This document shows, piece after piece, positions 27,700 through 36,588 of a stretch of 64,000 nucleotides of DNA. This DNA is from Vampirovibrionaceae bacterium NZW_1234. GTDB lineage: Bacteria > Cyanobacteriota > Vampirovibrionia > Vampirovibrionales > JAGQHJ01. Below the pieces are notes generated by a model. That model was not told the origin of the DNA. It saw nothing but the letters and a program-made list of their open reading frames with translations, and ran no database searches. How positions within the stretch are numbered: position 1 is the first letter of the stretch; every line of letters starts with the position of its first letter. Position numbers and translations under genes: made by a program. The DNA lies in the NCBI GenBank assembly GCA_041697335.1, contig JBGUGD010000001.1:64001-128000 (forward strand), given 5' to 3'.

Positions 27700-28515
27700 C
27701 TAGGGTTTGTAGAGTTTGTAGGGGCGGCCAATTGCATCTTTAATTTGATCGTATTTTAACGGGGACTCGCTCAGCAATTTGCTGACACCGGTGGTGATGG
27801 AGCTTTCGTTCAAGTCCTTATGTTTATTCATAATCCACTCGGTAACGTCTTTGCTCCGGAAAGGCTTGCCTGCTTTTACCAATGCATCAATCCCTTCCTG
27901 AATCAAAGGGGTCAATTTACTGGGCTGACGACCTGTACTGGCGGTCTTTTTCACGGCGCTGGCAGAAACTTTTTTGGTTGCTCCTGCTTTGGTTACCGGC
28001 TTTTTAACAGCAGGTTTACTGGCTGCGGGTTTTTTGGCTGCTGTTTTAGTGGCTTTAACTGCTTTTACGGCTTTGGCAGGTTTTGTGTTTTTAGCCGGTT
28101 TGGCAGATTTAGCAGGTTTAGCTGCTTTTACAACAGGCTTTTTCGGTGTTGCTTTTTTCGTAGCGGTTTTAGCAACGGCTTTTTTTGCAGTTGCTTTAGT
28201 CACGGGTTTCTTTGCAGCAGTTTTTTTGGTCACGGTTTTTTTGGCAGCAGCTTTAGCAACCGGTTTTTTTGCTGCAGGCTTTTTGGCAGCCGTTTTTTTA
28301 GTAGCAGACTTGGGGGTAGTTGTTTTCTTGGTGGAAGCTTTCTTAGCCGGGGTGGCTACAGCAGCCGATGCTTTTCGGGTCGTTGTGGTGGATGCTTTTT
28401 CTGAAGCACCAGTTTGTTTGCGAGCTTTGGAGAGAGCTTGTTCCAATCGGACGTTTTCTAGAAAACGAGCTAATTCTTCATCCGTATCGCACGTCACGGA
28501 AAATGTAATGGGCAT
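27700..28515 (-). CDS. Histone H1-like Lys/Ala-rich protein with C-terminal winged-helix-like domain
   Basis: KKPAAK/KKTAAK/AKPAK repeats; AAGGAG RBS; globular C-terminal about 75 aa. Confidence 0.8.
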   Translation of the reverse strand: MPITFSVTCDTDEELARFLENVRLEQALSKARKQTGASEKASTTTTRKASAAVATPAKKASTKKTTTPKSATKKTAAKKPAAKKPVAKAAAKKTVTKKTAAKKPVTKATAKKAVAKTATKKATPKKPVVKAAKPAKSAKPAKNTKPAKAVKAVKATKTAAKKPAASKPAVKKPVTKAGATKKVSASAVKKTASTGRQPSKLTPLIQEGIDALVKAGKPFRSKDVTEWIMNKHKDLNESSITTGVSKLLSESPLKYDQIKDAIGRPYKLYKP

Positions 28516-34160: not shown

Positions 34161-34493
34161 TTAAGCGTTAAAGGTTTTGAACGAAGAGTCAATGTTTTTG
34201 TTGATAACCTTTTGAACCGCTTCAATCTCTGTCTGAACTGCCTGACGTTGGGTGTCCACACGACGTAAGTTCATTTCGAGAGCCTTATCCAGCGTCTGAA
34301 TCGCTGCAATTCTCGCTTGGATAGCGATAGCCGCAGGGGATTCAGGTTCAAGGTTAGCACTAATCGTAAACAGAGCGCCAGTGACGTTGGCCAGGGACAT
34401 ACGAGCTTGGTTAATGAACTGCCCCTGCAATTCCAAGTCACTCTTACGAGCTGTTAGGATTAGATATCTGGCTTGACTTGCTGCAAAACCCAC
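34161..34493 (-). CDS. Small coiled-coil protein of MGxAASQAR type
   Basis: GTG start with AGGAG RBS; MGFAASQARYLILTARKSDLE ... KVINKNIDSSFKTF. Confidence 0.8.
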   Translation of the reverse strand: MGFAASQARYLILTARKSDLELQGQFINQARMSLANVTGALFTISANLEPESPAAIAIQARIAAIQTLDKALEMNLRRVDTQRQAVQTEIEAVQKVINKNIDSSFKTFNA

Positions 34494-35404: not shown

Positions 35405-35510
35405 ACGAAAAAAATCCCTGTGATGTTGCCGTCACAGGGATAGGGATTTTTCCCTACAATCGTACATTGGCTATGGGTTAAGTTAAAGCGAAAATGAGTA
35501 GTAACTGCTA
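35405..35510 (-). ncRNA. Candidate sRNA, copy 1 of tandem family
   Basis: Contains invariant 21-mer (35456-35476) followed on minus strand by hairpins and U-tract; 5' end uncertain. Confidence 0.55.
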
Positions 35511-35583
35511 CTTAGCCCCAAGATTGCAGGGAAACAACATAGCTCGTGTATTGCCGCCCCAAAGTAGGGGGCGGGTTTCGGTT

Positions 35584-35763
35584 CTAAGCTTCCGTCCAGA
35601 GGCGCTGGTTGCTGTTGGGTGCGCCAGTCAAAAGGTTACCGCTGATCCCACCACCAAAGCTGCTGGCCGTGTCATTGGAGACCCCGTTAAAGCTATTGCT
35701 TGGAGGGAAGGTGGTTTTCATTACGTTTGCTGAACCGCCCATTGCGCTCATACTGCATGCCAT
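35584..35763 (-). CDS. Small Ser/Gly/Asn-rich protein, 59 aa (not in ORF track)
   Basis: AAGGAG RBS; MACSMSAMGGSANVMKTTFPPSNSFNGVSNDTASSFGGGISGNLLTGAPNSNQRLWTEA; GC hairpin just after stop. Confidence 0.7.
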   Translation of the reverse strand: MACSMSAMGGSANVMKTTFPPSNSFNGVSNDTASSFGGGISGNLLTGAPNSNQRLWTEA

Positions 35764-36003
35764 TGGTAGACTCCTTTTCTTGTTTCCTACTAACCTAACT
35801 GAAACGTTATATTCTTATAATAATGAATTGTTGAAACAAGAAGTGTCTTCTGGCCTACAAATTTAAAAAGAAAATAAAAAAACGTGGTGGCGTGGGTTGC
35901 ATCTTTGCCCGAAAAGCCTCAAGGCATGGGCCATTTGCCTATTGTTACGGTTTCTGGAAGTGAACATTTATGCCTGTAATTTTCCAGGTGCCACAGGGGG
36001 GCT

Positions 36004-36120
36004 GGACAAAAAAGAAAAACCCTATGGAAGTCATAGGGTTAACAATCGTACATTGGCTATGGATAAGTCGTTAAGAGTAAGATCGATTTAGCGTGTTTTC
36101 TGTGAGAGTAGAGTTTCGAT
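36004..36120 (-). ncRNA. Candidate sRNA, copy 2 of tandem family
   Basis: Extended -10 (TGaCATAAT) upstream, conserved core 36042-36073, terminator ccctatg/cataggg plus U-tract. Confidence 0.7.
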
Positions 36121-36299
36121 ACTTTTATTATGTCAAATTGATGTGTTGCTTTCTGTCGGGTAGCCAACAAATTTGTTCAGCGGACTCAAATTCGTCTTCG
36201 GAGTTTATCCGAAGCGTCTGAAACCCTTTTTAGATCTGGGTTTGAGGTGGTTTACATTTCGCAATCATCCTGCTCTCCAAGCGCGTTCCTCTAAAGGAC

Positions 36300-36420
36300 G
36301 GACAAAAAAAAGAAACCCTATGGTGAGCATAGGGCGAGACAATCGTACATTGGCTATGGATAAGTCGTTATGAGAGAGAGGTTTAGAGTTTTGGTCTGAA
36401 GAGATGTGTTGAGTTTCGAT
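36300..36420 (-). ncRNA. Candidate sRNA, copy 3 of tandem family
   Basis: Same promoter block (60/63 identical to copy 2), conserved core 36339-36370, same terminator stem. Confidence 0.7.
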
Positions 36421-36588
36421 ACTTTTATTATGTCAAATTGATGTGTTACTTTCTGTCGGGTAGCTGACAAATTCGACGGACTCCTCGGGTAATCCTGAAA
36501 AAACCGCCTAAATGCTCTCCACGAGAGGCAAAAAGGCGGTTTACAAAAGTTAAAGATTGAAGGCTTACAGCGAAATCAAGCCCGTCTG

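Follow-up and report, generated by a model that had tools for sequence, protein, structure and literature searches.

Three short cassettes in the 64,000-nt window (the whole stretch of DNA analysed here) carry an identical 21-nt core, which raises the question of whether they are small RNA (sRNA) genes and, if so, what controls them and what they act on. An earlier note on this DNA had read them as separately transcribed sibling sRNAs with a constant and a variable module. From the evidence set out below we propose, at a probability of roughly 0.6, that sibling trans-acting base-pairing sRNAs, with copies 2 and 3 in a Crp/Fnr-type stress regulon, would account for the cluster as a whole. The genome carrying the window is G000 (3.70 Mb, 94.75% complete), and G003, G004, G028 and G034 are relatives; open reading frames (ORFs) and starts were predicted throughout by simple scripts, and some of these predictions are in error.

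Cassette structure and the divergence of the copies

The 21-mer occurs exactly at 35456, 36042 and 36339, as had been claimed, with 0 matches in 100 shuffles, and in the whole 3.70-Mb genome it matches three places only at up to 3 mismatches, all in the window (4 places at 4 mismatches and 14 at 5). The identity of copies 2 and 3 does extend to 32 nt (36042-36073 and 36339-36370), and on the minus strand a hairpin with a U-tract follows the core in all three copies. The features of the cluster are the following.

35406..35441, minus strand: copy 1 intrinsic terminator; the plus strand also scores as terminator-like
35443..35454, minus strand: extra small 12-nt hairpin of copy 1, between core and terminator
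35456..35480, minus strand: copy 1 core, with the 21-mer at 35456
35467-35480, minus strand: 14-nt segment of copy 1, TAACCCATAGCCAA, identical to the end of an sRNA-like element conserved in three genera
35584..35763, minus strand: 59-aa orphan ORF with a purine-rich leader, of which copy 1 may be the 3′-UTR
36007..36040, minus strand: copy 2 intrinsic terminator
36007..36121, minus strand: copy 2 predicted sRNA, about 115 nt
36042..36073, minus strand: copy 2 32-nt core, with the 21-mer at 36042-36062
36054-36064, minus strand: copy 2 start-codon-complementary stretch, within the 32-nt core
36127..36135, minus strand: copy 2 extended -10, predicted start about 36120
36154..36169, minus strand: copy 2 Crp/Fnr-family box TGTTG-N6-CGACA, one mismatch, 21 nt before the -10
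36303..36335, minus strand: copy 3 intrinsic terminator, 8-bp stem and U-tract
36303..36421, minus strand: copy 3 predicted sRNA, about 119 nt
36339..36370, minus strand: copy 3 32-nt core, also in copy 2, with the 21-mer at 36339-36359
36351-36361, minus strand: copy 3 start-codon-complementary stretch, within the 32-nt core
36427..36435, minus strand: copy 3 extended -10 (TG-n-CATAAT), predicted start about 36420
36454..36469, minus strand: copy 3 Crp/Fnr-family (CooA-type) box TGTCA-N6-CGACA, centre about -41.5 (CooA consensus from PMC545781, excerpt)

The cluster region is bordered on one side by a 413-aa FG-GAP-like gene and on the other by a 105-aa DUF5789-like gene, which has no homologue in the protein database or the viral contigs searched; the region itself holds no long ORF, except for the 59-aa ORF at 35584-35763. 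A conserved small ORF within the core was rejected by eye, as the reading differs among the copies on both strands. Elsewhere in the window, 34161-34493 (minus strand) encodes a 110-aa protein that matches no Pfam family and has at least four paralogues in the genome, and 27700-28515 (minus strand) a 271-aa Lys/Ala-rich protein, histone H1-like by eye.

The predicted copy 3 sRNA consists of a C/U-rich, weakly structured 5′ part, the core and the terminator in that order, and in foldings of the predicted RNAs the core has no stable fold of its own. The terminator stems are paired in 24 of 24 stem cells across the three copies. The compensatory change previously noticed in them is present, with 2 of 8 pairs changed on both sides, but it is not significant (66 of 500 shuffles equal it), because only three sequences are available.

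Judged by sequence, copies 2 and 3 are homologous intergenic genes, each with a promoter and a terminator of its own, the arrangement that at least two genes must have to count as siblings. The 63-bp upstream block ascribed to them is common to both, and so is the extended -10, where CATAAT is preceded by TG (36132-36127 and 36432-36427). The stretch of about 40 nt between promoter and core, described as divergent, is variable but still homologous (26/42, or 62%, against 48±4% in shuffles). When the units of about 297 bp are aligned, the upstream block is identical at 60/63 positions (95%) and the core at 32/32 (100%), with the terminator at 30/39 and the variable part at the 26/42 just given, whereas the flanks (62/131 and 31/64) are at shuffle level. 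A promoter and a core left intact amid decayed surroundings point to purifying selection on the promoter and the RNA motif; gene conversion may instead be the source of the block identity.

Separate transcription can be argued for copies 2 and 3, but not for copy 1, which has no recognisable promoter, lacks both the upstream block and the Crp/Fnr box, and lies about 110 nt behind the 59-aa ORF on the same strand. Copy 1 is probably a 3′-UTR RNA of this ORF, with the same seed apparently under different control. The ORF itself has no Pfam match and no paralogue within the genome; a degenerate copy of the promoter-like motif GCAA...TGTTTTTAT precedes it.

Part of the copy 1 core recurs outside the cluster. 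A 13-mer taken from it is found at 20 places in 49 genomes, 13 within ORFs and 7 intergenic, and three of these seven are one syntenic element (in G000 on C28, in G003 and in G004), termed family C here, which ends in CAUAACCCAUAGCC and a terminator. Copy 1 and family C have 14 nt in common, where 200 shuffles gave at most 12 (against 247 terminator-upstream regions), whereas the 10-nt overlap of copies 2 and 3 with the family C seed was reached by 45 of 200 shuffles and is at chance level. The terminator and upstream module of family C differ from those of the window copies. In G000 the family C element lies at C28:52715-52800 (plus strand), conserved and syntenic in three genera, and a further intergenic seed is found at G004:C49:48136.

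The Crp/Fnr-type box and its candidate regulon

Inside the 63-bp block of copies 2 and 3 lies a regulator box that the earlier note had missed, in each copy 21 nt before CATAAT, and at this spacing it is therefore centred near -41.5. Crp/Fnr activators occupy a position of about -41.5 at class II promoters. Both copies thus have the layout of a class II Crp/Fnr promoter, a 16-bp palindrome near -41.5 before a -10, counted from the predicted start. Across the genome, 13 intergenic sites fit TGTCR-N6-YGACA with its spacer of 6, versus 2-5 for each of nine other spacers, and a -10-like hexamer stands 21 nt behind exact boxes six times, versus 0-2 at 24 other distances; one-mismatch boxes inside the window alone are unenriched (7 vs 5.7). 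The copies are quite likely to be regulated through this box.

Three Crp-family genes score above the cut-off in G000 (on C2, C15 and C29), and one exact box lies directly behind the one at C15:46701-47390, ahead of an operon with a thioredoxin and a DsbD-domain gene. Judged by this proximity, the C15 protein is most likely the activator. A box also precedes an MNIO/bufferin-like operon beside a CsoR-like repressor gene (BufB score 304 against a cut-off of 310); the locus, G000:C16:29297-32135, comprises the CsoR-like repressor, a Cys-rich precursor, a BufB-like MNIO and a DUF2063 partner, and resembles a bufferin cluster. Several of the boxed genes have no functional label. Close homologues of the C15 protein are present in 3 of 49 genomes of the order, G000 included, and exact boxes occur at two of the three homologous Crp loci, in G028 and G034. 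With labels read from the sequence, a box stands ahead of a thioredoxin/DsbD-like operon in G028, and boxes in G034 stand ahead of bufferin-like precursor operons and of a thioredoxin-like gene. The box is unenriched genome-wide in G028 (4 sites vs 6 in the control) and has 10 sites vs 5 in G034; none of the 14 box loci of these two genomes has a cassette nearby.

Since the box stands at the same spacing before the bufferin-like and thioredoxin/DsbD operons, copies 2 and 3 seem to form the non-coding side of a regulon for copper/thiol stress. Bufferins are copper-induced in Caulobacter (PMC11626156, excerpt), and we give about even odds to copper or thiol stress as the signal. Two further orphan RNAs lie behind a Crp-type box and a -10, at G000:C29:207199-207430 (plus strand) and C30:1331-1180 (minus strand), and have no common core. 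A cluster of TGTCG/CGACA half-sites, none at 6-nt spacing, is found upstream of cydA (G000:C13:91600-91660).

The closest described box is that of CooA, with the consensus TGTCGGCNNGCCGACA (PMC545781, excerpt). Like the CooA sites, the box is a 16-bp palindrome, and the copy 3 box agrees with the Desulfovibrio vulgaris cooSC site at 14/16 positions (PMC545781, excerpt). However, the boxed genes here are bufferin-like, thioredoxin/DsbD and sRNA genes, and no coo gene was recognised beside the 13 exact sites among the genes scanned, which were some of those present. The candidate regulator, moreover, is a generic Crp/Fnr protein that reaches the cut-off of no named family.

Searches in relatives and RNAs of the same build

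The full core had no match in 60 relatives at up to 2 mismatches, and its 12 matches in 400 genomes of the class at up to 3 mismatches were all inside long reading frames. The exact 21-mer gave none in viral, metagenome and genome collections, and a degenerate gapped core pattern gave 48 chance matches in metagenomes, with no cassette among them. The search for the 21-mer that the earlier note had suggested therefore returns the three window sites in G000 and nothing in relatives. This says little, because G000 is the sole genome of its genus, the flanking protein has no homologue more than 59% identical, and synteny behind the FG-GAP orthologue is lost, the region differing in 4 of 4 family genomes. 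Searching the family genomes by blastn with copies 2 and 3 gave chance-level matches, and a three-sequence model (R1) run over 61 genomes gave weak, mostly terminator-driven matches, the best outside G000 scoring 30 bits against 70-95 for the copies themselves. That the cassettes belong to no known RNA family holds in an Rfam scan, where no family reached its gathering threshold, the copies had no match up to E 5, and the whole window yielded only a tRNA. A REP/MITE element was rejected, since the three copies stand in one locus and none is dispersed.

RNAs of the same build are nevertheless found across the order. Family A, reached through the weak R1 matches, consists of a promoter-like motif, a variable spacer of 39-110 nt, the invariant CCCAGCCUAUGUCCCACC and, last, a terminator. 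Of 49 genomes, 14 contain the 14-nt core of the family, and its terminator stem covaries (0 of 500 shuffles equal it, a figure to be read with the relatedness of the sequences in mind). Exact matches in the genome collection number 20, of which 12 have the promoter-spacer-core-terminator build and 7 of these 12 are titled Vampirovibrionales or Vampirovibrio; 300 genomes of the phylum gave one match, with one mismatch. The copy in G000 (C20:5904-6010, minus strand) has an invariant 18-nt core, and the scanned loci had no Rfam match; a 6S RNA lies about 460 nt away (L077:2063-2240, on G000:C20). In 10 of 14 loci family A is immediately preceded by family B, which has the invariant AUCUCCACUGGACACACC and a terminator and lies in G000 on the minus strand of C2; the conserved gene ahead of the tandem is one that we take to encode a TPR protein. 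Membership of the window copies in family A was rejected: the 14-member model R2 aligns to their terminators only and misses their cores, so the architecture is common to both and membership is not.

In two promoter-proximal regions that look transcribed, one in G000 (C26) and one in G028, sites of 14-16 nt complementary to family A follow the promoter motif of that family, a finding in favour of base pairing by RNAs of this build. The site in G028 (C47:140699) is a 16-nt complement of the core in the leader of a hydrophobic ORF of about 63 aa. The region in G000 (C26:42585-43080, plus strand) has the promoter motif, a 45-aa ORF and a G-rich 3′ tail, and is a candidate multi-sRNA sponge; the tail is complementary to at least four orphan-terminator RNAs (C4:19341, C15:6520, C20 and C28). 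There are 250 intergenic terminators in G000, 133 of them orphan, and among these are further multi-copy core-plus-terminator families, grouped as C2:123445/C29:92236/C14:156557, C2:124361/C38:18108, C9:109665/C9:110716 and C9:123520/C9:119940. A motif at C37:118041 presumably resembles that of Yfr1. The promoter-like motif GCAA...TGTTTTTAT has 182 intergenic versus 42 coding sites in G000 at fixed spacing, is also present in relatives, and is possibly the site of a lineage-specific sigma factor.

The selective conservation between copies 2 and 3, their regulated promoter and the same-build families in the order together support the earlier reading as sibling sRNAs with a constant module, and the cluster very probably consists of functional sRNA genes.

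Candidate targets, rival readings and known systems

By pairing energy no partner stands out, the best reaching -27.0 against -28.6±2.4 for shuffled cores, with no non-coding or start-region site winning, and the variable parts have no partner better than shuffles. Counted by exact complementarity, start regions match the 32-nt core more often than they match CCAT-containing shuffles: 7 of 3074 regions have a match of at least 11 nt, where the shuffles give 0.7 and none of 200 comes as high, and 86 against 55 have one of at least 8 nt. The matches centre on the AUG; a positional start-context model absorbs most of this excess (GCTATGG, 21 observed and 14.9 expected). Of the 3074 predicted genes, 7 have the 8-mer GCTATGGA, itself picked post hoc, at their start, namely cydA, cydB, a BioB-like radical-SAM gene, rpiB and three unnamed ones, and an adjacent gene pair is matched by 3 of 290 comparable 8-mers. 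The core pairs over 11 nt with cydA, and cydB has an additional site across its ribosome-binding region (-22.5 kcal/mol). An sRNA acting on cydAB has been reported in Rickettsia (PMC9960880). The relative cydA gene, found in 1 of 5 genomes, lacks a complementary site. We regard cydAB as a tentative and rather doubtful target, and the BioB-like gene and a glutamate-synthase-family gene (12-nt pairing with the core) as weaker candidates; all of these picks are post hoc. A coarse motif for heme-copper oxidases had no match in G000; the idea of a simple switch from bd to a copper oxidase lacks support on this count and was rejected.

We therefore envisage the following course only as a proposal. 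Local duplication would have produced the sibling sRNA genes, and a Crp/Fnr-family activator, likely the C15:46701-47390 protein, would, under copper or thiol stress, switch on copies 2 and 3 along with the bufferin-like and thioredoxin/DsbD operons. The (U/A)CCAUAGCC seed would then pair with GCU-AUG-G start regions and block translation, with the cytochrome bd operon cydAB as the best candidate target, and copy 1 would bring the same seed under different control. Such pairing would proceed without Hfq or ProQ, neither of which was found in G000 (94.75% complete) with the profiles PF17209, PF04352 and PF21979, which include two models for Hfq.

Base pairing is fairly likely as the mode of action, and it has to be weighed against other uses of an invariant core. 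An unlikely alternative is that the RNAs are decoys whose single-stranded core titrates an RNA-binding protein, extra copies raising the dose. Total invariance over 21-32 nt does exceed what a seed requires, no target stands out by energy, and CsrA and one RRM protein are present in a genome where Hfq and ProQ were not detected. However, each RNA has a single motif and no GGA occurs in the three predicted minus-strand RNAs, so they are not CsrB-like and decoys of the CsrB/RsmZ kind were rejected; a cold-shock-domain protein that might bind the CCAAU motif was not found in G000, and for family A, which has this build across the order, complementary sites of 14-16 nt exist elsewhere in two genomes. 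Action mainly on non-coding RNAs, in a sponge network like Yfr1/Yfr2, seems quite unlikely to us. Several orphan-terminator RNAs show good pairing with the C26 tail (G000:C26:42785-43010; z -6.4 and -4.6), which could form about 17 bp with copy 2, and C5:155016-155030 (plus strand), just before a terminator and 3′ of a 155-aa ORF, is a perfect 15-nt complement of copy 1. Yet copy 2 ranks only 14th of 133 on the tail (z -2.0), the C26 region has no convincing homologue in 48 relatives (four short weak matches), and the C5 site is no better than shuffles.

There is only a slim chance that a terminator region was recently duplicated in tandem or gene-converted without any RNA function, or that the cluster is a protein site at the DNA level. 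The confinement of the core to G000 among the searched genomes would fit a functionless duplication, but the flanks have fallen to background where promoter and core have not, and the box keeps the regulon spacing; a single further genome match at 4 mismatches argues that the core is not a dispersed operator. The suggestion that these are constant-scaffold/variable-guide RNAs for an RNA-guided protein fares worst and is highly improbable. A variable 5′ part does precede a constant 3′ part in the window copies and the order-wide family alike, but the variable parts are drifted duplicates at 62% identity rather than the unrelated spacers of CRISPR/TIGR-like guide arrays and have no partner above shuffles, the core lacks a stable fold, blastn of the cluster region against phages and plasmids gave no matches, and a Pfam scan of eight neighbouring ORFs found no RNA-guided-effector family.

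For Vampirovibrionales/Melainabacteria, the non-photosynthetic sister group of cyanobacteria, the locus provides a candidate RNA family with a predicted regulator, signal and target, all of which can be tested with reporters in a laboratory host. Following it up also brought to light candidate sponges and no fewer than three more conserved seed-plus-terminator families, in a genome with no detected Hfq or ProQ, which bears on how chaperone-free sRNA regulation works and on whether Yfr1/Yfr2-like networks are older than photosynthesis. A wider picture, which we hold as speculation that will probably need revision, is that Vampirovibrionales have a large Hfq/ProQ-free network of a single design, with variable leaders, invariant C-rich seeds, terminators and G-rich multi-site sponges, of which the cluster would be a young branch with the older start-codon seed CCAUAGCC, wired through a CooA-type box to a Crp protein that governs copper/thiol stress, and silencing both bd cistrons. 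The literature search listed no paper on sRNAs of Vampirovibrionales/Melainabacteria and no report of this RNA family, its regulator link or the RNA repertoire of the lineage, and a term search of PMC12873609 finds no mention of the lineage.

Among known systems, FnrS, CyaR and NsiR4 are single-copy sRNAs under Crp/Fnr activators. The window copies would resemble them as a non-coding repressive arm of an activator regulon, although regulator, signal and sequence are all different. The kind of RNA is already known from what the excerpts of PMC4211561 and PMC6778093 describe. Sibling sRNAs such as OmrA/OmrB, PrrF1/PrrF2, Qrr1-5 and the csRNAs likewise come in several copies under one regulator, with a conserved core (32 nt in Qrr), a divergent remainder and a terminator (PMC4211561, excerpt). 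Unlike them, the window copies belong to another phylum and a genome where no Hfq was found, show no sequence similarity or Rfam match to them, have the core directly before the terminator, and include one sibling that is apparently differently regulated. Yfr1/Yfr10 with the sponge Yfr2 have another motif and no Rfam match to the copies, whose full core is limited to one lineage and whose expression is predicted to depend on an activator; however, they belong to the same phylum and likewise combine a short, invariant, single-stranded C-rich motif in otherwise unlike RNAs with complementary partner RNAs (PMC6778093, excerpt).
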